Shown in pieces: positions 19,683 through 63,081 of a stretch of DNA of 64,000 bases. The translations under genes and the position numbers were made by a program. The first letter of the stretch is position 1, and each line of letters begins with the position of its first letter. The DNA is taken from the NCBI GenBank assembly GCA_965222655.1, contig CBDCUP010000010.1:372848-436847 (forward strand), read 5' to 3'. Under the pieces are notes generated by a model. The model made no database searches. It saw only the letters and a list, made by a program, of their open reading frames with translations, and was not told where the DNA came from. This DNA is from Acidobacteriota bacterium. GTDB taxonomy: Bacteria > Acidobacteriota > UBA6911 > RPQK01 > JAJDTT01.

Positions 19683-22104
19683 CTGCCCTTTACCCGTAAT
19701 TCGGTACAGGACAAAGTCATGTTTCTGGGTCTCCCAGAGCGAAGCCTTCACACAGGAGCCGGAGGTGTGAATAGCCCTGCCATATCAACTCATGACCCGG
19801 GGGCGCATCCTGGTTGCGTCCTAGGTATCCTCCGATGCGCGCCACCAGCCGTACCGCCTCACCCAGCTGCGAGGGCGGGTTCAAGCTTTTTTTTTGGCGT
19901 AGGCCCCCAGGACATGGAGTTCAAGATCCGAGAAGAGCACCTCGGCGGGCAGTTCCGGGGTTTCTCTGCCCAGCAGAGTCATCAGCATAATCCGCCAGGC
20001 GATGACCAGGTTGATCGCAATCGCCCGGCTGAGGCGCTCGGCGCTTCGGTGGGCGATCTCTTCGATGCGGCAGCCGGACTTCAGCACCCGGTGCCAGTCT
20101 TCAATGCGCCAACGCAGGCAATACCAGCGTAGGCATTGAACCGCCGCTTCGGGCGAGGCGAGAGTGGCGGTAGTCAGAAGGAACCACTCGATGGCTTCGG
20201 TTCCCGCAGGCGGAGAGTCCTCCCGCGCCTGAATCACCCAGATCTCGATGGGCTCCTTATCCGGGTAATATTTCGGGGGGCGAAGTTGGATCCGCCGATA
20301 GCGGACCGAGAGCTCCGCCCGGCGGCGGGGCCTCTGGGGCCGGGCCTTTCGCTTACTGAGCTTGGGCCGAGCGCTCTGGCGCGGCACCTGGACGCGGACC
20401 TGGGTCTGTACCGGCTCCTGTACGAGCGCTTCGAAAAGCTTGAACGGCTCCTCCGTGATGCCGCGGTTGTGTTGGGCGCGCACCAGTAGGTCGACCCCCG
20501 GGTAACGGCGTTGCTCCTCGAACAGCTCGAAGATATCCGCTTCCCGGTCGCAGACGTTGATCAGTCGCGTCTGGGGCATTTGGGCCGCCACTTCTCCGAG
20601 CTCGCGCAGCGCTTGAATCCAGCAGAAGGTCTGTTTTTCCTCGATCGGGATGGCCCAGCTCGGTCGCTTCTCTTGCGGCGATTTCAACTGCGGCGCCAGA
20701 CACTGGGCGCGCAAGACCCCCAGCGGAAGTCCATTGGGGGCCACGGCCAAGGTCGAATGCAGGTGCAATCCCCGACTCTGGGCGCCGGTCTGGTTGCTGC
20801 CGATCACTCCCAGACCTTCACACTGAGCCAGGCTCGTATAGTCCAGATCGGTGCCGTCCTGCAGGCACAACACGGTGCGCTGCCCCTGCATGCGCCGCAG
20901 GGTGCGTTGCCGGTGAGGCTGCAGAATCTGGGGCAGGCTCACCGCGGCCTCGTCCGGGTGGTCGATCAATCGGTAGTAGGCCTTGACCGCCGGCCAATCC
21001 CCCTGGGCCACCCCGCTAAAGGCACGACCCGGTTCCTGCGCCTTGGACTCCACAATGTTCACCAGTCTTCGGCTCAGCCGCGCGTCCCCCAGCGGCGCGC
21101 CGCCAAACTCCTCTTCCGCCCAACTCTCGGCCTCGACCCCCTGGGCCGGAGCCAGCGGCCCCAAGCCGGCCCCCTCGGCCAACCCCAGGCGGGCGCGGAA
21201 CTCCGGCTCCAGCGCATACACATAGATGTCCTTGATCGTTTCCTCCCGCTGGGTGAAACGATCCTGCCGACCCCGACCCTGGGTTCGGCCCACCCGGGTC
21301 CAGTTCGCTGCCCGATAGGATGCCCCCGAAAACCGGCTCGTGTCTACAAAACTCTCGACCAACCAGGGACGGTACCCATAGCGCTGCTCGAAGTCTTCGG
21401 CCAGCCGCTGCAGGCTCAGGCTCAACACCCGCGAGGCCAGGTTCTGACACTGCACGCTGGGTCGGATCAGAAAACGGCTCAGGCACACGACCCCGTGCAG
21501 ATGGGCGCGCCTTTGCTCCGCATCCCAACCGATCCAGCGGTCCCGGTCCACGAGTTGCAACGCCGCGGCGGCAAAGCCCAGGCCCCCCAGCCAGCCGTGC
21601 TCGGAGCCGAGCAGATAGCGCAGCTGCCGTCCCACCAAGGGCCCAGCCCCCAGCGGATGCTCTTCGATCATCAGCTCGTTCCAGATCCGCATCTGCCCCG
21701 GCTCGCCCACCCCGATCAACTCCAGCCCCCGCACCTCCCCCACCTGCTCGGGCACCCCGATCGGCTCCTCCACTGGAGCCGCCAACCGTCGCGGACGGGG
21801 CGCCCCTTTCTGGATCCGTGGGGGCGGCAGCCGAAAACAGCCCTTCGCTTCCAGCTCCCGCAACGCCTTCAGGCAACCTCCCCGCTGGGGCCGCCCGCCG
21901 GGGTCATAGAATCGCAACTGATCGCAAAGAAAACCGGCCAACTCGCTTCGCGAAGAGAAATCCCCTTCTTCCAGCAGCCGGCTTACATACTCGATGCTCT
22001 CGGGCTTCGACAGGGTACGCTTGATCTGATTCTGGAGCTGCATGCCGCTCAGTTTGAACGACCCGAAACTCTTTGTCCAGTCCTTTATTACGGGTAAAGG
22101 GCAG
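19683..22104 (-). mobile_element. IS4-family (IS50/Tn5-like) insertion sequence, 2422 bp
   Basis: 18-bp perfect TIR ctgccctttacccgtaat / attacgggtaaagggcag; 8-bp TSD gcctagcc at 19675-19682 and 22105-22112. Confidence 0.9.
19717..22043 (-). CDS. IS4-family transposase with DUF4338-like N-terminal domain; -1 frameshift at A9 run
   Basis: Tn5-like LGDARLSRRL, QDGTDLDY, LHLHST, VCDREADIFEL, YCLRWRIEDWHRVLKSGC. ORF stops at AYAKKKA; the -1 frame from the T9 run (19887-19895 on +) continues SLNPPSQLGEAVRLVARIGGYLGRNQDAPPGHELIWQGY to a stop at 19717. Confidence 0.85.
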
Positions 22105-27993: not shown

Positions 27994-29871
27994 GCGTGCC
28001 GGGCACGCGCGCTGTCTGGGAGGGTGCAAGTCCCTCCGCCAACCTGATGGAGGTGAAGGCTAGCGAAGCACAAGGGCGTCACCGCGAGGTGGGGTCTGAA
28101 GGAAGTGTGGAGCAAACGTACGAGCCGACGCACAGAAACTGGATAAGTAGGCGCCAAGGTCGGACGAGTCAGCGCGTGGTGACGAAGTCCATATCCATCA
28201 AGATCCGGAAGCGTAAATCCAGCGGTTGTGTACGGAAAGACAGCGTCCTTACCCCGGGAGGCCTGGGAGGCTGTCCCTTGAAGGACAGGTGGAATCGTAA
28301 GGTTTCATAGCGCCCTCCAGGAGTCCGCAGAGGGCATAGTAGGTGGGGAAACTCACGGAAGGCCCGAACGGTAGGGAGAGGTTAGTAGGTGTCCAATCTT
28401 AAGGGTGATCAACAGAGGCAGAGAAGTCCGAAGCGGACCTCAAACCGAACAGCTGGGGTGCGGCCCCAGGGAAGCGGGGAGACGGCGGATTCATCCTTAG
28501 CGAAAGGGCGAACCGAAGGCCCGATGTTTGGTGAGAACGTCATGGAGGAGATATGCGAGCGAAGTAATCTGGAAGCGGCGTTGAGACGAGTGCGAGCGAA
28601 CCGAGGGGGTCCGGGAGTGGACGGGATGACCGTCGATGAACTGCCGGAGTACCTGAAGGCGAACTGGCGGTCGATCAAAGAACAGCTGCTGTGCGGGGAG
28701 TATCAACCGCGACCTGTCAAGGGGGTGGAGATTCCGAAACCGGGAAGGAAAGACAAGCGAAGACTCGGGATTCCGTGTGTGATCGATCGATTTATCGAGC
28801 AAGCGATGCTGCAAGTGCTGCAACGCAAGTGGGATCGCACGTTCTCAGAGTCCAGCTATGGCTATCGACCGGGGCGCAGGGCTCATCAGGCAGTGGCGCG
28901 TGCCCAAGACTACGTGAAAGCGGGCTACGGGACCGTGGTCGATCTCGATTTAGAAAAGTTTTTCGATCGAGTTCACCACGATCGTTTGCTGAGCCGGCTG
29001 GCGCGGGAGATTGGGGACAAGCGGGTACTGAAGTTGATCCGAGCGTATCTAAGCGCGGGGATTCTGCGGTACGGACTGGTGAGTGCGCCGACGGAAGGGA
29101 CGCCGCAAGGCAGCCCCCTGTCCCCCTTTCTCTCGAACGTGGTTCTGGATGAGCTGGACGAGGAACTGGAGCGCCGGGGTCCCCGTTTTGTCCGCTATGC
29201 CGATGACTGCAACATTTATGTGCGGAGTCGGCGGGCGGGGGAGCGAGTGATGGCGAGTGTGAGCCGGTTTGTGAGCCAGCGACTGAAACTGCGTGTCAAT
29301 CGGGAGAAGAGTGCGGTGGATGAGCCCCAGAAGCGGAAGTTCTTAGGCTTCACGTTCACGGGAGGCCGATCGCCCAACCGGCGCAAGATTGCGCCGGAAT
29401 CGATCCAGCGGTTTCGATCCCGGGTGCGTCGTTTAACGCGGCGTAACCGGGGGATCAGCCTGGAGCAGCGTGTGGACGAATTGTCCCGCTACCTCCGGGG
29501 CTGGATTGGATACTTTGGGTACGTCGAGAGCCCCTGGGTCCTGCGGGGTCTGGACAGCTGGATTCGTCGTCGCCTGCGCAGCGTCCAATGGAAACAGTGG
29601 AAGGTCTACCGGCGACGCCAGGCGGAGTTGATCCGGCTGGGCGTGAGTCGGGATATGGCCCAGCGGACCGCGTGGAGCGTCAAGGGCCCTTGGGCCCTCA
29701 GTCAAGCGCCCGGGGTCCGGATAGCGCTTCCGAATGCTTATTTCGATCGGTTAGGTCTTCCTCGGTTGGCTAATCATCAGCGCATTCAACCCTAGCGAAC
29801 CGCCTTGGTACGGACCCGTATGCCTGGTGGTGTGGGAGGGGAAGGCCCGTGAGGGCTTCCCCTATCCCGAG
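27994..29871 (+). mobile_element. Group II intron, class C (IIC)-like, 1878 nt
   Basis: DI motifs gggtgcaagtccc and gcgaggtggggtctgaaggaag; DV gaacCGCcttggtacggacccgtatgcctggtggtgt; DVI with bulged A at 29864; boundaries fixed by exon reconstitution. Confidence 0.92.
28389..29795 (+). CDS. ltrA: Group II intron reverse transcriptase/maturase (no endonuclease domain)
   Basis: GGPGVDG, RRLGIPCVIDR, SYGYRPGR, DLDLEKFFD, GTPQGSPLSP, RYADD; C-terminal maturase X domain. Confidence 0.95.
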   Translation: MSNLKGDQQRQRSPKRTSNRTAGVRPQGSGETADSSLAKGRTEGPMFGENVMEEICERSNLEAALRRVRANRGGPGVDGMTVDELPEYLKANWRSIKEQLLCGEYQPRPVKGVEIPKPGRKDKRRLGIPCVIDRFIEQAMLQVLQRKWDRTFSESSYGYRPGRRAHQAVARAQDYVKAGYGTVVDLDLEKFFDRVHHDRLLSRLAREIGDKRVLKLIRAYLSAGILRYGLVSAPTEGTPQGSPLSPFLSNVVLDELDEELERRGPRFVRYADDCNIYVRSRRAGERVMASVSRFVSQRLKLRVNREKSAVDEPQKRKFLGFTFTGGRSPNRRKIAPESIQRFRSRVRRLTRRNRGISLEQRVDELSRYLRGWIGYFGYVESPWVLRGLDSWIRRRLRSVQWKQWKVYRRRQAELIRLGVSRDMAQRTAWSVKGPWALSQAPGVRIALPNAYFDRLGLPRLANHQRIQP

Positions 29872-30810: not shown

Positions 30811-30880
30811 AGCCACCGCTAAACAAAAGTTAGCGGGTCCACGTCATCCAAATCGGTATCGGTATCGGTATCGCTATCGA
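30764..30880. repeat. Inverted hexamer tracts (cgatac)n / (atcggt)n
   Basis: tcgataccgatagcgatttcgataccgatttcgat at 30764-30798 and atcggtatcggtatcggtatcgctatcga at 30852-30880. Confidence 0.8.
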
Positions 30881-31411: not shown

Positions 31412-31816
31412 ATGAAAAAAAAGAACCTGATGCGACAAGCCCTCTATGAAACCTACTTATGCGGTCATGATCTGAAAAGAGTCTGCGCCAACATTCAGGA
31501 GCAGATCCAGCAGGGCGAGGAGAGCAAGGTCCTCGCAAACATGAAGGAGTTCCTGGACGGAGTGGGCTGCATCTCGCAGGCCCTGCACATGACCGAGGCA
31601 GTCCACCAGGACTACCAAATCAGCTTTGATCTGCATGACTTGCAGCGGGTATTGAATCCGCTGGTCGAGGCTCTGGAGAGCCGCGACTTCGGATCAATCG
31701 ATGAGATTCTCAGCTACGACTTCCTACCGCTTTTGGACGGTTGGTCGGCTCAGCTGGCTCAAATCGAGCCGACAGGGGCGCTCAGCGATGCCGGGACGGG
31801 CAACCTGTCGTCATGA
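31412..31816 (+). CDS. Hypothetical helical protein coupled to maf
   Basis: 134 aa; ends with ALESRDFGSIDEILSYDFLP; ATGA overlap with the maf start. Confidence 0.7.
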   Translation: MKKKNLMRQALYETYLCGHDLKRVCANIQEQIQQGEESKVLANMKEFLDGVGCISQALHMTEAVHQDYQISFDLHDLQRVLNPLVEALESRDFGSIDEILSYDFLPLLDGWSAQLAQIEPTGALSDAGTGNLSS

Positions 31817-32161
31817 TCCAGATCGAACATGATCAGGCCAGGAATGGCCAACCGATCCTTCGCGCAGTTGACCCGGACGGCCGAAAGGTCCTGCTTCACA
31901 GCCGCTACGATCCGGAGCGGGAAGCCCAGCAGTGGTGTGACCAACTCGAGTGTAAAGAGCGCGATGTCATCCTTTTGTACGGACTTGGGCTCGGGTACCA
32001 CGTCAAGCCACTCTTATCGAGGCAGAACAGACCCATCTTCGCCGTCGAGCCCAATTCAGAGGTGATCGACATAAGCAGGAAGCTGAATCCATCCTTCTTC
32101 GATGGCGGTGATGTCCAGGTGGTGACCGACTGGGAAGAGTTCAAGTCTGCCTCCTCCCAGA

Positions 32162-33902
32162 GGCAGCGCAACAATTTTTCTGTAATTTCAGGGTCGGTTG
32201 TGGGACAGGATCCTCCTCTCTTGGCTCTCGGGTGCAGAAAGCAGTGGCCCGTGAGCCGCTCGCTGTGAATCTCTCTAAGGCAACCAGCAGATCTATCAAA
32301 ATGAGAGGCCGGAGCAGCTTGCACTACTCGCAGAGAGCGATTCAGCGCCCCCACCTCCTTCTCCAAGAAAAGAGGCCCTGTCAGAAGCCCTCAGAGCCAC
32401 GATCGCGGGCTGCCCCTTACCGAGAACCCTCGCTGATCTGAGGGTCTCGGGTTTAGGGAAACGCTCTTCTAGGATGCCTCCTCTTCTTGCCAGCTCTCCA
32501 GGTTCAGATAGCAGCGGCCCGTGAGCCACTCGTCGTGAATCTCCGCCAGCACGGCTGAGATCAGTCGCAACGCCGAGTCGATATGGGGGAAGATTCCCAC
32601 CACTCGAGTGCGGCGCCGGATCTGTTTGTTGAGATTCTCCACGCCGTTAATCGTCCGGATCTTCTTGTGCAGACTGCGGGGGAAGGCGTAGACCGTCAAC
32701 CCCTCGCGCACGTTGTCTTCCATCCACTGGGCCAGTGCCTGGTTGGTTTCGGTGAACGCCTTGATCTTGCGTTTGAGCATGGCTTCGGCATCCTCGAGGG
32801 TGGGGCTGTTGAAGATGTCCCGCATCGCTTGGCCGATCTGGCCCCGCTCTTGGAGCCGACGGGCAAAGCGCTGAGCATTCTGGCTCAGATGAAACTGGCA
32901 GCGCTGCCAGGGAACCGCGGGAAACACCGCTCGTCGAGCGGCCTTCAGTCCCGCGTGGTCGTCACTGACGACGAGCTCCATTCCCTTGAGTCCCCGCCCG
33001 GCCAGATCCTCAAAAAACGCTCTCCAGTGGACCTCCGCCTCGCTCAGCCGGGCGCTCAGACCCAAGACCTCACGGTGACCGGAAGCCTGCACACCGACTG
33101 CCTTGAGGATGGCCAGGTCCTGAACTCGTCCATCGACACGGACTTTCTCGTAATGGGCGTCCAGGTAGACGAAGGGATACTCACCGCTCAGCGGCCGGCT
33201 ACGGAACTTCTCCAGCTCCTCATCCAGCAGGGAGGCGACCCGTGAGACCTGGCTGGCGGAGATCTCCGTGCCACACAGCTGCTCGGTGATTTCCGTGACC
33301 TTGCGCGTGGAGACGCCCATGACATACATCTCGGCAATGGCCAACTTCAGCGCCTTTTCCGAGCGGCAGCCCTTCTCCAGCGATTGAGGGTAGAACGACA
33401 GCCCTCGCACCTGAGGGATCTTCAGTCGGAGCTCTCCCACACGCGTGGCGATCTTCTTGTCCTTGTAACCGTTGGCGTGGCCCCGTCGCTGGCTCGTTCT
33501 CTCGTAGGGCTCGGCTCCCAGAAACTCCGACCGTTCCAATCCCATGGCCAAGTTCAAGAGCTTCTCCAACACCTTGCGAAAGGTCTCCGTTCCTTCTTGG
33601 ATCAACGCCTCTAGGATCTCTCGTGGTACTCTGTCTTCCAGGTCTGGGGCCATTGGATTCTCCTTTCATTTTGGATGAATGATTTAGAGAATCTTGTCCC
33701 AGACCTCTGACGGCTCAACCCTTCGGCTGACGGCCTTTGGCCCCCTTCCGGGGGGGCCCGGCGCGCAGCGCCGCACGGCTCAGGCTGCACTCGGCCTACA
33801 GCCTCCTTCCGCCTGAGCCGCGCCAGGTTCCTCGTCAACCCAATCCTCGGTATCCCGAGAAATTCCCTCTTAACGGGAAATTACAGAAAGAACGGTACAC
33901 TC
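32162..33902 (-). mobile_element. IS256-family insertion sequence
   Basis: Junction direct repeat ctcctcccaga (32151-32161 / 33900-33910; 8-bp TSD reading ctcccaga); imperfect TIRs share tttctgtaatttc. Confidence 0.9.
32469..33653 (-). CDS. IS256-family (Mutator) transposase
   Basis: RRGHANGY, GVSTRKV, YPFVYLDAHYEKVR, VVSDDHAGL, WQRCQFH, IRTINGVENLNKQIRRRTRV. Confidence 0.93.
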   Translation of the reverse strand: MAPDLEDRVPREILEALIQEGTETFRKVLEKLLNLAMGLERSEFLGAEPYERTSQRRGHANGYKDKKIATRVGELRLKIPQVRGLSFYPQSLEKGCRSEKALKLAIAEMYVMGVSTRKVTEITEQLCGTEISASQVSRVASLLDEELEKFRSRPLSGEYPFVYLDAHYEKVRVDGRVQDLAILKAVGVQASGHREVLGLSARLSEAEVHWRAFFEDLAGRGLKGMELVVSDDHAGLKAARRAVFPAVPWQRCQFHLSQNAQRFARRLQERGQIGQAMRDIFNSPTLEDAEAMLKRKIKAFTETNQALAQWMEDNVREGLTVYAFPRSLHKKIRTINGVENLNKQIRRRTRVVGIFPHIDSALRLISAVLAEIHDEWLTGRCYLNLESWQEEEAS

Positions 33903-35337
33903 CTCCCAGAGCGCAAGTCCTTGGCAAAACATATTCTTCGCCAAGATACCCAGCTATCCAAAACTCTACCAGAGCCACTACCGTACCTTCACCGAAAAAC
34001 TGAAGCGCGAACTGCTGCGAGTTCAGGCAGACCGCACGACGGCGATCATCCACAGCAAGGCCTGGCAGACGAACTTCCTCAAGAATATCCGCTATCTGGA
34101 AGAGAGCGTTCCGGTGGCGACGACTTTCAATGAATTCGTCAAGCAGCCGGTGATCATCGTGTCAGGGGGTCCGTCCCTGACAAAGAACATGCACCTGCTC
34201 AAGGAAGCCAAGGGCAAGGCCCTGATTCTAGCCGTAGGGGCGGTAGTCAAGCTCTTGATCGAAAACAACATTCGTCCGGATCTGATCGTCTCCTTTGACG
34301 GAAACCTGGATAACTATCGACATTTTGAGGGCGTAGAACTTCCGGATGTCACACTGATCTACGATCCCATCATCCACTACAAGGTGGTCGAAGAGCACGC
34401 CGGGCCAAAGTCGATCATGCTCGTCCACGAGAACTGGCTGGAAGATGTCCTGGGAGAAACCATAGGAAAACTGATGCCGGGGCCATCGATCGCCAATACT
34501 GCTTTCGACTTCGCCTACCGGCTGGGTGCTGACCCCATCATCTTTATTGGGCAGGACCTCTCCTACGAAGACAGCTATCACGCTGAAGGTATCGGGACCG
34601 TTACCGACAATCGCGAACTCACTGAGTCAGTCCCAGGTCAGGACGGCAATCCCGTCCGCACCAGTAAGCCTCTGCTGACATTCCTGCACTGGTTCGAGGA
34701 ACGCTTCAGGACTCTGAAGGGCGAGCGAACCATCATCAACGCAACGGAAGGGGGCGCCAACATCAGGGGAACCCAGAATCTTCCACTCCTTGAGGCCCTG
34801 AAGACCTACTGTAATCGAGACCTGACTGAACCCATCAGCCGGCTCAACCAGATCCTGTCACAGACCCCCTCCTACGATATGCTGTCGTTCAGGCGCGCTT
34901 TGGCGACCGCCTACCGAAAATCCCAGGCACTCAGCGAAATGTGTAGCACTGGCGCGCGTCTTTCCCAGAAGCTGATCGATCACTTCTCAGGTCGGCAAAC
35001 GTGCGACGTGCCAAAGATCCTGAAAAAGCTGAATAGGCTGGATCGAAAGCTACAGGCATCTAAATCCGACCTTCGTCCCCTGGTCTACATTCTCTACCCC
35101 ATCATCCAGATTTCCGAGAGTACCCAGATCAATCCGGACCAGAGACAGCTGGAATCGGCTCGGCATTTCTACTTCCTATACTGGCAACTATCCCGTGCGT
35201 TCAGATACGTCAATCCTCTGCTCAAGGAGATCCTTGAGCACCACAAACCAACGTCGGCAACCGCCCAGAAGTCGCCCACAATCCACTGATGAAAGCGCAA
35301 GCCGTTTCTAACCCGCATTTTCGGAGCAGGGTTTTGA

Positions 35338-36679
<1,342 letters not shown>

Positions 36680-37993
36680 GCCTGTCCGCCAAACGGTTCT
36701 CCCCTACGGGACACACAGCATCGACGAGAGCGACATAGAGTCGGTCGTAGAGGTCCTTCGGTCAGGCTGGCTGACCACCGGACCCAAGGTTAGCGAATTC
36801 GAGCAGACCTTTGCCGAGTTTGTTCATGCGCCGCACGCCCTCAGTGTCAGCAGTGGGACCGCCGGCCTGCACGCCGCGATGTACGCCTTGGAAATCGGCC
36901 CCGGAGATGAAGTCATCGTTCCGGCGCTGACCTTTGCTGCTACCGCAAATGCTGTCGTCTACCAGGGGGGAACGCCGGTCTTCACCGATGTCGACCCCAG
37001 GACCCTGCTCCTGGATCCGCTTCAAGTCGAGAGGAACCTGACGTCGAGAACCAAGGCGATTGTGGGAGTGGACTATGCGGGCCAACCTTGCGACTACAGT
37101 GCCTTGCAGGATCTGGCCGAGCGTGAGGGTCTAGGTCTGGTTGCCGATGCCTGTCATTCATTGGGAGCTCGAGACCTCGGTCGACCAGTGGGAAGCCTCA
37201 GTCACCTCTCTGTCTTCAGTATGCACCCCGTCAAATCCATCACCTCAGCCGAGGGCGGAGTGGTCAGCACCTTCGACCCCGCCCTGGCCAACCGAATCAG
37301 GCTGTTTCGAAACCATGGGCTCAGCAAGGATCATCGTCAGCGGAACGAAGAAGGCTCCTGGTTCTACGAGATCAGTGACCTGGGCTACAACTATCGATTG
37401 AGCGACCTTCAGTGTGCCCTGGCGAAGAGTCAGCTTCGCAAACTACCCTCCTGGTTGGAACGAAGGAGATCCATTGCAAAGCTCTACGACTCGGCCCTGG
37501 CAGGTTGCGGCCAGGTTGTGCCCGTTCAGACCAGAGCCGGCGTCTCGCATGCACGCCATCTCTACGTAATCAGGCTGAGACTCGACCGTCTGAAAGTAGA
37601 CAGAACGGAGATATTCAAAGCTCTCCAGCACGAAGGAATCGGGGTCAACGTTCACTATATTCCGGTGCATTTGCATCCCTTCTACCGTCGTGTGTTGCGC
37701 ACTGGATCCGGACTCTGTCCAGTCGCCGAAACCGCCTACCAGGAGATCCTTTCCCTCCCGATCTTTCCGGCGATGACAGACCAGGATGTCGACGACGTAA
37801 TCCAGGCCCTCTTCAAGGTACTGAACGCCTATTCTCGGGACCGTTTCCAGCAGCTGAGTAAGAGCTTCGGGAGGGGCGACTCGAATCCTTCCCGCCCCTT
37901 CTCTCGGGATACGAGCAGGGCGGAGCGGATCCGAATAGGGTCCTAGCAGCCTGTCGGACTTAACTTACAGGCGTTTCTGAAATTTAAGTTTAA

Positions 37994-39730
37994 CCTAAAT
38001 TGAGCGATTCTACTCATTTTAGCGAAAATGAAGGTCGCACAGATGCGAGTTCCGACGGCAGAGGGTTCCGGGTGAGTTCAGAAGGGTGGAGGGTGGCGAT
38101 TTTCCCTCGCGAAAGGGAGCAGCGACCCTGAGCCGAGGCGATAGCGGGCACACGGGGGCCCTGAGGCTGGAAGGAGGCTTTGGTTTTTTGAGATTTAGAC
38201 CCAGGCGAAAGGCGGCGGGTGGGCGCTCTTGCGCCAGAGCCGGTCGATTTGAAGCTGCTTCCAGGTGGCGGCCGTTACTTTCAGCAGGATCTGGCCGGCA
38301 TGGCGGACGATTTTCCCCGCCACGTCGATGATCCGCCGACGTAAGGTCGTGGGGTAGCAGTTGAGCGGCACCACCGGCTGGCACACATCTTCCTTGAAAC
38401 ACTCGTAAAGGAAAAAGGCCACCAGCAACGTGTAGTAATAGGCCGCGTTGGCAGCAAAGCGTTTAAACGGAAGAGTCTGTGAGGTAAAGTCCTTCAGGGC
38501 TCGATGCACTAACTCATCGGCTCCCCGTCCCTGATAGCCTTGCAGGATCGCCTCGGCTTGAAGCCAACGCTCGAGCCCCGCTTGCTGGAGCTGCTCGTCC
38601 ACGGCGGAGCCGCAACCGAGATTGGTGTACAGGATCTGATCGGGACGGGCAAAGGCCAAAAGGCGCTGCTGATCCTCATAAGCCGGTCGGCAGAACAGGG
38701 CCCGGCGGAACTTCTCCCAGCTACCCCGCCGGTTTCCCAGTTCCACATAGTGCCACTCCTGATCGCCGTTGCGAGAGACTCCCCAGGCCGTTTCCTCCAG
38801 CTGCAAGATGTACTGTTGCACATCGCCATAGAGCTTGCCGGCGACGATGTAGCCGACCTGGAGTTCTTCCAAGACCTTCAGCAGCTTCTGATCGAAAAAG
38901 CCGCTGTCCAGGCGCACGATGATGGGTACCTCGGAGCGGTACTTTCGGCGAATCTTCCGGATCAGATGACTCAGGGTCTTCGGGGCCGTGTCGGCGTGGT
39001 TGGAGTGCTTGTCTCCTCCCCGAAAGACGGCATCGATGAGCAAGCGGCCCCAGGTGACCTGAAGCGGCTGAAACCCTTTGACTCGTTTGTAGGTCGGCGC
39101 CACGCCGTGGCGCTGGGGGGCCTCGTCGTTGTCCATCACCATGGTATCCATCCCCAGCAGAATCAGGGGCGGCTGTTGCAATCGCAGCCGCCACAGGAAC
39201 AGCTGCTGCAGGAGTCGGCGAAAGAGCCAGATGCGCCACATGGAAAAGCGGCCGAAAAAGCGCTTGACCGCGTGAGAGGACAGCAAGGCCTCGGGCTTCG
39301 TCTCGATCGCTGCTCCATAGCCCGGATCCTCCTTCAAGGCTTCGAAGGACACCAAATGGCGACTCGATCCGTCTAGGAAGAAGCACCACAGCTGTTTGAA
39401 GATCTCCGTCACCGGCTGTCCTTTGCGGCTTTTGCGCAAGGAGCCAAACAGCCGATCCAGATCAGGGTCCAGACCCAAGCTCCGCACATAGCGGACAAAC
39501 AGGCTCAGCCCGGCGCGTCCGGTCAAGGTCTCCGAGGTGGGTTGCACGTCGTCTATCCTTCGGGAAACAGACGCCTCAGAATGACGGGGAAGGGTGCTAT
39601 AGTGGCTCACAGTTGTTTTACCTTCTGGGTTAGGAGCTTTTCGGTAGCCCATCTACCGCTAACTCCTAGCCCAGCAACATCTTAACTCAAAGATGTGACA
39701 TCCCTAGGCCCATCAATCGCTCAATTTAGG
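37994..39730 (-). mobile_element. IS1380-family element nested in the IS1182 end
   Basis: 16-bp perfect TIR cctaaattgagcgatt / aatcgctcaatttagg; 5-bp TSD tttaa (37989-37993, 39731-39735). Confidence 0.9.
38195..39652 (-). CDS. IS1380-family transposase
   Basis: LTGRAGLSLF, LGMDTMVMDND, IVRLDSGF, YQGRGADELVHRALKD, LPFKRFAANAAYY, TLRRRIIDVAGKIVRHAG. Start uncertain. Confidence 0.87.
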   Translation of the reverse strand: MGYRKAPNPEGKTTVSHYSTLPRHSEASVSRRIDDVQPTSETLTGRAGLSLFVRYVRSLGLDPDLDRLFGSLRKSRKGQPVTEIFKQLWCFFLDGSSRHLVSFEALKEDPGYGAAIETKPEALLSSHAVKRFFGRFSMWRIWLFRRLLQQLFLWRLRLQQPPLILLGMDTMVMDNDEAPQRHGVAPTYKRVKGFQPLQVTWGRLLIDAVFRGGDKHSNHADTAPKTLSHLIRKIRRKYRSEVPIIVRLDSGFFDQKLLKVLEELQVGYIVAGKLYGDVQQYILQLEETAWGVSRNGDQEWHYVELGNRRGSWEKFRRALFCRPAYEDQQRLLAFARPDQILYTNLGCGSAVDEQLQQAGLERWLQAEAILQGYQGRGADELVHRALKDFTSQTLPFKRFAANAAYYYTLLVAFFLYECFKEDVCQPVVPLNCYPTTLRRRIIDVAGKIVRHAGQILLKVTAATWKQLQIDRLWRKSAHPPPFAWV

Positions 39731-39832
39731 TTTAAGGTTTGATTAAAAGTGTTGCATGACCAAGCACGAAAAGCGATGAGTCATCTGCTCTGCGGCGGTG
39801 ATTTGGCCGCTGAAACGACGCGGCCCACCTCT

Positions 39833-41217
39833 TCAGAGGGTGGCACGGGCCATCGTCGGCTGGCGGCAGGAGAGGTTGTACATTCTTTTCAGATTCCAGG
39901 CGATGCTGGCCAGAGTCCACTCCCGGTCTGCTGCCTCCGCTCCTCTGAGAGAGAACTGCGTAAAGCCCATCACCGATTTGATGATCCCAAAGACGGGCTC
40001 CGGGACGGCTTTGCGTTGCCCGTAAATGGCTCGACCCGCGGGGGTCTTCAACCGGTATCTCATCTGCTCCACCGCATCGGCGTCTTGCCCGGGCGGCTCC
40101 GGTTGTTTCCAGCGTTCGGTCGGCCGCAAGTGGTGGGCTTCCCGCTCGACCGCAATATAGGGGACAATCGCGTGCTCGCCACAAAGCTCCACGTTGGGGC
40201 CACTGAAGTAGCCGCTGTCGGCCAGCAACTCCTGGGCCCGACCCAGCGACTCGGGCAGGGCTTGCAGCGCCGCCAGGGCCGGCTCCAATTCTTTCTTGTC
40301 GTTGGCGTTTTGCGTGACATGAGCCGCCACAATCAAGAAGCTGTCGTTATCGACCAAGGCCTGAGCGTTGTAGCATTGCTCAAATCCCCCGCCCGAGACC
40401 GGCATGATCCGAGACTCTTCATCCGTCAGATTGATCTGATCCTGGTCTCGAATTCCTCCTTGGGGCGGTTGGGGGGGCGACCCCGCGGTTTGTTTCCCCG
40501 TTTCCTCTGGGCTTGCCGCTTGGCCACTTTGGCTTCATATTCGGCCTGCTCACCTGCCTGCCGCTCGGCCGCCCGCTGGGCCAGCTTCTGCTTTGCTTCC
40601 TCGATCGCTTTCAACCGTTCCTCCCGCCGCGCCAGCTCAGCCGGGATGTCCATCCCTTCCGTTTCTTCTCGTCCATCCGCTGCCTCGGCCAGCCGCATCA
40701 ACTCTTCCACTTCTTCTCGCAGCCGCGCTTCCAGCTTCCGGATGTGCCCCCAACTCAACGCACTGTGCTTGGAGGCATTGGCTTTGACCTTCGTGCCATC
40801 CAAACTCACGCGGCCCAACTTCAGAAATCCCATCGCCTGGGCCAGCAGCAAGATCTCCACAAACAGCGGCTTCAGCTCTTGCAAAAATCGCTTCCGGAAA
40901 TGGGCGAGGGTGTCGTGATCCGGATGCGTGTTGCCGGCGAGGTAGCGAAACGCCACCGAATCGTAGCTGGCTTGCTCCAACTTCCGACTCGAAAACACCC
41001 CCGTGGCATAGCCGTAAAACAACAACGCCAGCATCATGGCCGGATGGTAGCCTTCCGATCCCCGCTTCGTGTAGGAATCCTCCAGCTTCCTCAGCTCCAG
41101 CTTGCTCACAACCTCCACCACGAAGCGAGCCAGATGCGTCTCCGGCAGCCATTCCTGCACCGAAGGGGGAAACAGATAAGGAGTCTCTCGATCGACTACT
41201 TTAAATCGATTCGCCAT
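39833..41217 (-). pseudogene. IS1182-family transposase, frameshifted at a C7 run
   Basis: N-part YLFPPSVQEWLP, YHPAMMLALLFYGY, SRKLE, PDHDTL, DGTKVKANAS. The -1 frame after G7 (40471-40477 on +) gives QINLTDEESRIM, YNAQA, LADSGY, RKAVPEPVFGIIK. Confidence 0.85.
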
Positions 41218-41281
41218 CACTAATGATGCCTGTGGGGTATGACCTCGAAAGTCCGACAGGCTGCTAGCGAGGAGAGAAGTC

Positions 41282-46636: not shown

Positions 46637-48308
46637 ATGCTCTACAAGAAAATAGACTTCGAATGCGAGTGCGCAATCGAACTTTTTAGGGTCATCCGGT
46701 AAATGGGGAGGTGGGGACGTGGTTGGCACCTTCCGGATCCCAAATCTGCTCCCCGTTCGCTTGTCCATATAGTCGGCTGCAGTAGCAGAGGCCGTGGGAA
46801 CTGTGGAAAACTCCGAGCGACATCGAACCGGGCCAGCAAGCCCGTGATACGGAGTTTTCCAAGCGCTGTGCGAACGGTGGAAAAACAACTGCGAGCACTT
46901 GCCAGTTCTCCTCTAGAACTACTTGTTTTTCCACGGTTTGCATAGTGCGGCAGTTTCCATGGCCTGCCTTTGACTGGCGGCACCTCCCCATTTACCGGAT
47001 GAACCACTTTTTACCGCTTGCAACTACCACTGTGACTACTGCAGCGGCCCGCGAGCCAAGAAGCTGGTGCGACGGGGTCGGACCCCGGAGGACGTCGATC
47101 AAGTGCTTCGCTTCTTCAATGACTCTGGAAAGAAGTGGCTGATTGGAATGTCGGGGGGAGAGCCGACGGTTCATCCCTTCTTCGGCGACCTGGTCAGTGG
47201 TCTGAACAAAAAACACGCGTTCTACTTTTTCACGAACCTCACTTTCGACGTCGAATCGTTCATGAAACTGGTGTCCGCAGATCAGGTCCAGTACATGAAA
47301 ACATCCCTACATCCCGAAGCCGACGTCGAAACCTTCCTGGAGAAATACGAGCTTCTCTTCGGGTTCGGCTACAACCCGATCCTGATCATGGTATCTGCCC
47401 CCGATACCTTCGACCGGATCAGTCATGTCGCTGATTTCTGCCGGGACCGCCAATACCCTTTCACCCTCTCCGTCATGGAGGGGCCCTACCAGGACAAAAA
47501 CTATCCCAACGACTACAGCGAGCCAGAGGAGCGCTTCATCGAGGAGCACACGGCCGAGGCAGGAAACCTGATCCGGCTATTTTCGAAGACTGCAGGCGGA
47601 CTGAACACCTTGGGACTCTCCTGTCCTGCCGGCCATCAGAGCTTTGTCCTGGATCTGGAGAGCGGCAACGTGTTCAGCTGCGAATCGGTCAACCACATCC
47701 ATGGGAACATCTACGAGGGAACCTTCTCTCCAAGCTCCCAGGACATCACCTGCCCGGCCGTCAATGGCTGTGTGGGCTACGACCGCTCGCCCCTATTGCC
47801 CGGAGCCTACAGGGATTTCTTTACCGAAGGCTGGAACTACTGGCACCTGAAAGACGTCAAGAGCGAACCCGATTACCCCAAGAATCTTCATCAAACCATC
47901 CAGGCCAATCAGAAGGCCTCGGGAGAGATGATCGAGACTGCCCTGGACGCAATTCATCAGCGGATCTCGGGCAACGACACACTGTTTTGGGGCGCGGGCA
48001 TCTACGGAGCAAAAGTTCTCTACAACTTCCACAAGAAATTCCCCGACGCATCTGACGGGAACTCTGCCGGCAGTGTCATCGGCTTCATCGACTCACTGAA
48101 GGACCGACGGAAGACTACGGTTCTTGGACTGCCGGTCTACAGTCCCCAGGACGGAATCGTCAACCGCGCCAAGAAGATTCTGATCACCTCCTATGCCTTC
48201 GAGCGGGACATTCTCGAGGTCGCCAAGAATCTCGGGGTGAAGTCGGAGGTGATCGCCTTGCATCGGGACATCCTGAACTCGATTGGCATCCGCTATGCCA
48301 TCTTCTAA
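46637..48308 (+). pseudogene. Radical SAM protein with C-terminal Rossmann-like domain, interrupted by 317-bp MITE
   Basis: 46637-46688 + 47014-48308 = 448-aa ORF: MLYKKIDFECECAIELFTACNYHCDYC (CxxxCxxC), SGGEPT, FTNL, SLH; C-terminal FWGAGIYG...IGFIDS. Confidence 0.85.
46689..47005. mobile_element. 317-bp MITE, copy 2
   Basis: Same TIRs as copy 1; 8-bp TSD acttttta (46681-46688, 47006-47013); 4 substitutions versus copy 1. Confidence 0.95.
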
Positions 48309-62461: not shown

Positions 62462-63081
62462 TGCGAATCTCCTAGCGAAGCGATTCGCGCAGCCGGGGTG
62501 TCGATCTCAGTGATTTGGATCCCGTAGTATCCATCGATTGAGACGATCTTTCCCCGCGCGAACATCTTTTCATTGACCTTCAAGACCGCTGGCTCGTCTG
62601 GAGCCTGGTCCAGGGCCAGCACCGATCCAGAGGTCAACGTCAAGATGTCCTTCAACGGAAGGCAGGTCGATCCGAAGCTAACCGTGAGGGGCAGCTCGAT
62701 GTCCAGAATACGCCGCACCACAGCTGGGTATTCCTGGGTCGACTTCACTTTCTCTGGCGGCCTGGTCGGAGTGACATCTTCAGCCGGAACCTTCTCGGAC
62801 GCTATGGTCGCGGCCGGCTCACTCTGAGCGACGTCTTCAGCCGGAACCTTCTCGGACGCTATTGTCGCGGCTGGCTCACTCCGAGCGACGTCTTCACCCG
62901 GAGCCTTCTCGGACGCTATGGTCGCGGCCGGCTCACTCTGAGCGACGTCTTCACCCGGAGCCTTCTCAGACGCTATTGTCGCGGCTGACGCACTCTGGGT
63001 GACATCTTCATCTGGAGCCTCTGCAGGAGGAGCCGTAGAGGCGGCTTCGTCCTGATCTTGGGGCATCTCTGGTTCGGTCAT
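62458..63081 (-). CDS. fliN: Flagellar motor switch protein with repeat-expanded N-terminus
   Basis: C-terminal SpoA domain ILDIELPLTVSFG...LTSGSVLALD...FARGKIVSIDGYYGIQITEI. Confidence 0.88.
   Translation of the reverse strand: MTEPEMPQDQDEAASTAPPAEAPDEDVTQSASAATIASEKAPGEDVAQSEPAATIASEKAPGEDVARSEPAATIASEKVPAEDVAQSEPAATIASEKVPAEDVTPTRPPEKVKSTQEYPAVVRRILDIELPLTVSFGSTCLPLKDILTLTSGSVLALDQAPDEPAVLKVNEKMFARGKIVSIDGYYGIQITEIDTPAARIASLGDSQ
62771..63010 (-). repeat. 57-bp (19-aa) tandem repeat, about 4.2 copies, in fliN
   Basis: Units start at 62771, 62828, 62885, 62942, 62999; peptide unit EDVAQSEPAATIASEK(A/V)P(G/A). Confidence 0.95.

Follow-up and report, generated by a model that had tools for sequence, protein, structure and literature searches.

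A fixed IS256-family insertion in a predicted maf gene of an Acidobacteriota flagellin glycosylation island is very probably a decaying null allele

We analysed a stretch of 64,000 nucleotides from an uncultured Acidobacteriota bacterium (contig CBDCUP010000010.1, positions 372,848 to 436,847), hereafter called the window, whose own positions are used for all coordinates below. In it, an insertion sequence (IS) of the IS256 family splits maf, a gene for a predicted Maf-type protein. The gene belongs to a flagellin glycosylation island that starts with a response regulator, flagellin, fliD, fliS and a small DUF8042 gene, whose stop codon is overlapped by the maf ATG. After maf follow pseB, pseC, a neuB-cytidylyltransferase fusion and a class-III aminotransferase, and the island ends with a pseG-like gene, a GT2 glycosyltransferase and a radical-SAM gene. 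The frames of flagellin, FliD and FliS are open, as are those of flgL, flgK and flgA further along the window.

The 5' fragment of maf (31813..32161, + strand, codons 1-116) aligns with the first 116 codons of the intact gene in two syntenic loci, L001 and L002, both of which are free of the IS. The 3' fragment (33905..35289, + strand) holds nearly the whole MptE-like domain, and the insertion point falls at codons 115-117. The first canonical start in frame within the 3' fragment is a GTG at 34114, which opens an open reading frame (ORF) of 391 amino acids (aa) that is recorded on at least five further contigs. The IS is flanked by a direct repeat of 12 bp, CTCCTCCCAGAG, at 32151-32162 and 33900-33911, with a spacing of 1749 bp. 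A first-pass annotation, made from the sequence of the window, had given this repeat as 11 bp, CTCCTCCCAGA; that string does occur exactly twice in the window (32151 and 33900), but the identity extends one base further. The same annotation had claimed that deleting 1749 bp rebuilds an ORF of 575 aa, and this proved correct: removal in silico yields an open frame of 575 codons from the ATG at 31813 to the stop at 35289, including the quoted peptide ..KSASSQSASPWQN... Two intact orthologues (P0001, 90% aa identity, and P0002, 82%) are also 575 aa long and align with the restored gene without gaps. Hence, the insertion is a simple one and the repeat did not arise by chance. An IS-free maf site would read GCCTACACCCAGAGCGCAAG or GCCTCCTCCCAGAGCGCAAG.

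We then compared the window with five assemblies of the same species (the sisters), which are 99.5-99.8% identical to it: L166 (ENA sample ERZ25071132), L167 (ERZ26694896), L168 (ERZ25069191), L169 (ERZ26167216) and L173 (ERZ25068833). The IS sits at the identical maf site and in the same orientation in all six assemblies, and no intact Maf allele closer than 90.6% aa was found among 5.8 billion proteins. The interrupted allele is thus fixed in everything sampled, and at the consensus level occupied and empty alleles do not coexist in the species. The insertion is older than the split of the six assemblies. The 5' fragment has since been frameshifted in three of the five sisters: L168 carries a 25-bp tandem duplication after position 31955, and L169 and L173, which come from different samples, have a 1-nt deletion at 32053 in common. 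These lesions leave early stops even after removal of the IS in silico, and the excision product is in frame, at 575 aa, in the window (with a Ser-Ser pair described below), L166 and L167, but frameshifted in L168, L169 and L173. Stop codons in the maf halves of relatives had been named by the first-pass annotation as a sign against its own reading of the locus, that of a reversible switch, and they are what three of the sisters carry. As a separate observation, L169 lacks 41 bp at the equivalent of 31747-31787, where the DUF8042 gene ends shortly before maf begins, and this deletion fuses the frames.

On the window branch, with L002 as the outgroup, maf accumulated 50 synonymous and 37 non-synonymous changes, against 185 and 108 in five intact neighbours (p = 0.38). 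This branch-specific comparison between maf and its neighbours did not detect relaxed constraint. Since the ratio in maf resembles that of the intact genes, the branch was mostly under constraint, which implies that the IS came in recently compared with the 10% divergence from L001.

Two other genes of the island are also interrupted in the window. Compared with the syntenic locus L001 (around 89-90% DNA identity), each break in collinearity corresponds to a mobile element. A miniature inverted-repeat transposable element (MITE) of 317 bp at 35677..35993, with the duplication CAAAAAAC, splits pseB (35350-36679). A second copy at 46689..47005, with the duplication ACTTTTTA, interrupts the radical-SAM gene (46637-48308) immediately upstream of the CxxxCxxC motif. 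The two copies are 98.7% identical, with the terminal inverted repeats GGGTCATCCGGTAAATGGGGAGGTG and CACCTCCCCATTTACCGGATGAACC, and when each is taken out in silico along with one of its two 8-bp duplicates, pseB and a radical-SAM ORF of 448 aa are regained. Three genes of the island, maf, pseB and the radical-SAM gene, are therefore broken in the window. The pseB MITE is present in the window and in L168 and absent from L166, L167 and L169, where pseB is intact.

The assignment of the interrupted gene is based on domain and gene context. The restored protein matches PF01973 (MptE-like) at residues 171-337 with E 5.5e-43 (147 bits, cut-off 34.6). The Maf N-terminal family PF20157 scores 20.5 bits on it, below the cut-off of 23.5, and is carried by several homologues at 33-45% identity. 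Its best match in the PDB is 5MU5, a Maf structure from Magnetospirillum (E 2.7e-5), and its closest named relatives are about 34% identical. The NCBIfam PseD model NF050051 gives it 104 bits where 670 are required; it is a relative of PseD-type proteins at the domain level that falls outside that curated subfamily. Together with PF01973, its position between flagellin/fliD/fliS and pseB/pseC/pseG/neuB-cytidylyltransferase points to a Maf-type protein, as the first-pass annotation had proposed. Among the neighbours, PseC scores above the TIGR03588 cut-off, and the intact PseB of a sister reaches 453.8 bits on TIGR03589 (cut-off 407.75).

The IS is 1743 bp long (32162..33904, - strand), with ends set by an independent copy, L170, and by a related IS with about 60 copies. 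Its terminal inverted repeats are imperfect (28 bp, 32162-32189 and 33877-33904, 20 of 28 positions matching) and contain a perfect 13-nt core, TTTCTGTAATTTC. On the plus strand the left end reads GGCAGCGC... and the right end ...ACACTCCT. The transposase gene (32469..33653, - strand) is full length and encodes 394 aa, which match PF00872 (E 1.6e-110, profile positions 20-377 of 379) and the NCBIfam model of the IS256 family, NF033543 (348.5 bits, cut-off 150). The predicted transposase is of the Mutator-type DDE class and every sequence-level test for the IS256 family was positive; with PF01973 in the restored protein, this bears out the description of an IS256-family element interrupting a Maf-type gene. 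Members of the IS256 family have a transposase of about 400 aa, imperfect terminal repeats of about 25-40 bp and target duplications of 8, sometimes 9, bp. The 3' untranslated tail of the IS contains a degenerate duplicate of the 3' end of the transposase gene (32207..32273 against 32471-32543, 82% identity). This tail of about 300 bp makes the element unusually long for the IS256 family; it is kept in the IS copies L003 and L165 and is a feature of this IS subgroup. These two copies, among the closest, show no target duplication whatever, and L165 bears an IS4-type element directly after its transposase stop codon. Such features suggest frequent IS-mediated rearrangement.

The independent copy L170 is 98% identical, has the 8-bp duplication TCCCGCAA and shows the same end geometry as the related IS. 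The latter (around 72% aa identity) extends 15 nt beyond the core at either end, has clean 8-bp duplications at most copies and occurs in dozens of copies per genome in metagenome-assembled genomes labelled Acidobacteriota. Transposase copies at 98-99.5% aa identity are found on many further contigs, and a 98% copy is present on at least 19 contigs of one sample. An exact look-up returned no record for the window transposase, and likewise none for the protein P0121. A scan of GTDB genomes with the transposase gave no copy above 86% aa, and JGI metagenomes gave none above 72% aa; these copies could not fix the IS ends because they are too distant or have no duplications. We discarded two earlier delimitations. 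A duplication of 4 to 8 bp, drawn from L003 and L165 alone, was superseded by the sister assemblies and L170, and an IS at 32163-33903 with the duplication TCCCAGAG was ruled out by the sisters, which show CCCAGAGC and place the IS at 32162-33904.

The only unusual detail of this locus is its left junction. In all five sisters, the left junction runs from host sequence ...GTCTGCCTACA through CCCAGAGC into GGCAGCGC, reading CTACACCCAGAGC at the site of the left repeat, and the right junction runs from ...ACACTCCT through CCCAGAGC into GCAAG. The original target duplication was thus the ordinary 8 bp, CCCAGAGC, and the 12-bp repeat is secondary. In the window alone, the left junction runs from ...GTCTGCCTCCT through CCCAGA into GGCAGCGC; it differs from that of the sisters in a span of 9 nt, where two bases are substituted (C at 32153 and T at 32155) and 2 nt are deleted (window 32140-32170). 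The left side keeps only 6 of the 8 bp of the duplication: in the left repeat copy (32151..32162), CCCAGA at 32156-32161 is the remnant and 32162 is the first IS base. In the right copy (33900..33911), positions 33900-33904 are the IS tip CTCCT, and the intact duplication CCCAGAGC occupies 33905-33912. The 12-bp repeat is consequently made of six bases of duplication remnant, the first IS base and five bases (CTCCT) that match the other IS tip. The first-pass annotation had noted that the junction homology exceeds the 8-bp duplication; this is so in the window, whereas the sisters have 8 bp only. Over 6.5 kb, the window differs from both L166 and L167 at just three other window-specific sites (two single-nucleotide polymorphisms and an indel of a 6-nt repeat unit). 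The window junction is the derived state, because the TAC codon (Tyr) is common to the sisters, L001 and L002. Excision across the 12-bp repeat would leave Ser114-Ser115 (Tyr114Ser, Thr115Ser) in place of the Tyr-Thr encoded by the sisters, and Maf homologues with as little as about 40% identity retain the aromatic residue at position 114.

Read from 32153 on, after host sequence ending in ...GTCTGCC, the window gives the last four IS bases, six flank bases and the other IS end (TCCT-CCCAGA-GGCAGCGC...). In IS256-family circle and figure-eight junctions, the spacer is typically 6 bp and derives from the flank of the recipient end (PMC7780238, PMC5065196). The junction could thus be the fossil of a transposition intermediate, in which the 6-nt-spacer junction of a circle or tandem dimer returned to the donor site by recombination, rewrote the flank of the host, lengthened the repeat from 8 to 12 bp and left an allele more prone to deletion of the IS. 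We hold this to be improbable. Recombination with a circle or tandem-dimer junction is one candidate origin; junction-to-junction conversion with a separate deletion and an assembly error are the others. A simple template switch from the right junction alone was rejected by reasoning on the junction sequences, since it leaves the 2-nt deletion unexplained. No similar remodelling was found among the related IS copies examined. The oddity is small but real, and if reads bear it out, the 6-nt-spacer junction formed by transposing IS256-family elements would have left a natural trace here. If it is true and recurrent, copy-out/paste-in elements would scar and re-shape their own donor sites in a way that is detectable in long-read metagenomes.

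Taken together, these observations make it very probable that the insertion turned maf into a null allele, now fixed in a genome rich in IS elements, with subsequent erosion of a pathway that had become useless. The locus anatomy, the occupancy of maf in every assembly, the further lesions and the derived junction are shown; from them we infer the following order of events. The IS256-family element (1743 bp, duplication CCCAGAGC) would have entered maf in an ancestor common to the whole sampled population, once this had parted from the approximately 90%-identical lineage that has an intact gene. It would have cut the catalytic MptE-like domain off from the 116 residues at the N-terminus, and the split protein would have lost its function, giving a null allele. 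Once fixed, the allele seems to have decayed as a pseudogene, with frameshifts added to the 5' fragment strain by strain. In the window strain, MITEs would additionally have split pseB and the radical-SAM gene of this pseudaminic-acid island, and in the window lineage alone the left junction between IS and host would later have been rewritten, with creation of the 12-bp repeat and replacement of a conserved Tyr. The heavy load of mobile elements points to an IS-driven erosion of flagellin glycosylation rather than to a programmed switch.

Several points weigh against a null allele. In the window, L166 and L167, neither half of maf has lost its open frame. Consensus assemblies are blind to rare revertants, so that excision at low frequency may occur. 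The L173 contig has a coverage of 1x and that of L168 of 11x, and some indels may be assembly errors, an explanation that is weakened by the identical 1-nt deletion in L169 and L173 from separate samples. The window spans 64 kb only, and a second paralogue of maf or pseB could lie elsewhere in the genome. Finally, the 391-aa C-terminal fragment might have some residual function.

Among the alternatives, the one that fares best is that the loss of glycosylation was itself selected, for instance as an escape from flagellotropic phages or from recognition by a host. This would explain both the fixation and the multiple hits in the island, and it agrees with an allele that is fixed across at least five samples, with three disrupted genes in one island and with window flagellin, FliD, FliS, FlgK, FlgL and FlgA frames that remain open. 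Still, we regard it as unlikely: the data here do not tell whether selection, drift or hitch-hiking was at work in a genome so rich in IS elements, and the IS hits in the flagellin of L001 and in the fliD of L002 fit a general erosion of motility genes equally well.

The reversible ON/OFF switch proposed by the first-pass annotation is very unlikely. Under this hypothesis, the IS leaves precisely when the repeats slip or recombine, which switches glycosylation on again, and the 12-bp repeat makes such events more frequent. Such a switch would be compatible with the perfect flanking repeat and the in-frame deletion through it, with the open halves in the window, L166 and L167, and with the lack of detectable relaxed constraint in maf. 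However, all six assemblies are occupied and intact alleles are absent above 90.6% aa. Excision cannot cure the frameshifts of three strains, and in the window it would yield a product with both substitutions at residues 114 and 115. Nor is the rest of the pathway intact there: as pseB and the radical-SAM gene are also split, IS excision alone would not restore glycosylation. The sisters, for their part, have only the ordinary 8-bp duplication. The published record of IS256 argues in the same direction, since its precise excision is reported to be orders of magnitude rarer than insertion, is cited as transposase-independent and is unseen in natural isolates, and IS256 in ica is not found in clinical isolates (PMC13640169, PMC4322838). 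The least credible alternative is a split gene that still glycosylates flagellin through expression of its 391-aa C-terminal fragment, or of both fragments, perhaps from an outward promoter at an IS end: hybrid promoters can form at IS256-family ends (PMC7780238) and the C-terminal ORF retains residues 185-575, with nearly the whole MptE-like domain (171-337), but residues 1-184 are missing from it, and with them the GLGLGY region aligned to 5MU5 and 14 residues at the start of the Pfam domain, and the frameshifts of the 5' fragment and the loss of pseB in two strains fit a dead pathway.

Other mobile elements have also accumulated in and around the island. An IS5-family element (37943..41267, - strand), common to the sisters, separates pseC from the neuB-cytidylyltransferase gene. 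Nested in it, 50 bp inside its left end, is an IS4-family element (37994-39730) present in the window only. Since this IS4-family element and the pseB MITE are polymorphic, mobile elements are still active in the population; the maf insertion, unlike these, was never seen empty in the six assemblies. Upstream of maf, an insertion of 3.65 kb relative to L001 (27580..31230, + strand) contains a group II intron, with Rfam D1-D4 at 28078-28364 and a reverse transcriptase/maturase at 28389-29795. The roughly 1.4 kb downstream of this reverse transcriptase include, at 30851, a 6-nt unit, ATCGGT, of variable copy number. The syntenic loci of the related species have insertions of their own, an IS21-type element in the flagellin of L001 (1975-5310) and a DDE transposase in the fliD of L002 (5474-7943), with maf intact in both. 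In this clade, filament genes have been hit repeatedly.

Two further features lie away from maf. At the edge of the flagellar locus, an ORF of 720 aa (19881-22043, - strand) combines DruA (Druantia-associated, PF14236) with Tn5-type transposase DNA-binding and DDE domains, a fusion that looks unusual. Near the window end, positions 62766-63020 hold a tandem direct repeat of about 114 nt, with 88.7% identity between overlapping copies.

These results lead us to correct the annotation of this locus: the maf insertion is in all probability a fixed null allele and no regulatory device. The island is being dismantled by an IS256-family element, a two-copy MITE, IS4 and IS5 elements and a group II intron. 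The locus also serves as a worked example of how the idea of an IS acting as a switch can be tested without reads, by means of independent long-read assemblies of one species. The comparison of assemblies reveals at once the fixation, the secondary lesions and the insertions that are still polymorphic.

How does the locus compare with known switches? Karlyshev et al. reportedly found in 2002 that maf genes of Campylobacter jejuni are phase-variable through homopolymeric G tracts, and Higgins et al. are said to have described in 2007 the precise excision of IS492 in eps of Pseudoalteromonas atlantica. Those are real reversible switches, operated by slipped-strand tracts in one case and by frequent transposase-driven excision in the other, and both states coexist in populations. 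At the window maf, neither such tracts or high-frequency excision nor coexisting states are seen.

The precedent invoked for a switch was the insertion and excision of IS256 in icaADBC of Staphylococcus epidermidis (Ziebuhr et al. 1999, Hennig & Ziebuhr 2008, as recounted in passages of PMC4322838, PMC13640169 and PMC11178275). The two cases have in common an IS256-family element, an 8-bp duplication and the inactivation of a gene for a surface structure, revertible in principle by recombination between the duplications. Both states have been observed in ica, but later papers (PMC13640169, PMC4322838) treat even that case as rare and not as a natural switch. In the species of the window, by contrast, only the occupied state is seen in the six assemblies, with secondary frameshifts in addition, and the host is an uncultured environmental bacterium instead of S. 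epidermidis.

The gene and the element themselves have better-characterised counterparts. Maf proteins have been characterised in Aeromonas caviae (Maf1; PMC3426422, PMC4065374) and Helicobacter pylori (PseE; PMC7988653). The central PF01973 domain is common to these, to the Magnetospirillum protein 5MU5 and to the window gene, which, like known Maf loci, adjoins flagellin, fliD and fliS and a set of pseB, pseC, pseG and neuB/cytidylyltransferase genes. Maf proteins transfer a nonulosonate to Ser/Thr residues of flagellin, which would be the putative activity of the window gene if it were intact. The similarity to characterised members is low and the window gene is interrupted. ISCth4 of Clostridium thermocellum, which serves as the structural and biochemical model for how IS256-family elements transpose by the copy-out/paste-in route (PMC7780238), resembles the window IS in its Mutator-type DDE transposase, imperfect terminal repeats, subterminal core and 8-bp duplications. 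The window IS is longer (1743 bp against 1503 bp), and it alone has the 3' tail of about 300 bp with a degenerate copy of the transposase end. The window left junction reads like a circle junction of the IS256 and ISCth4 type with a 6-nt spacer (an IS tip, CCCAGA and the other end), a likeness of sequence only; the predicted circle junction of the window IS is ...ACACTCCT-CCCAGA-GGCAGCGC.... All in all, the locus adds to known kinds a further IS256-family element and an IS-disrupted maf.

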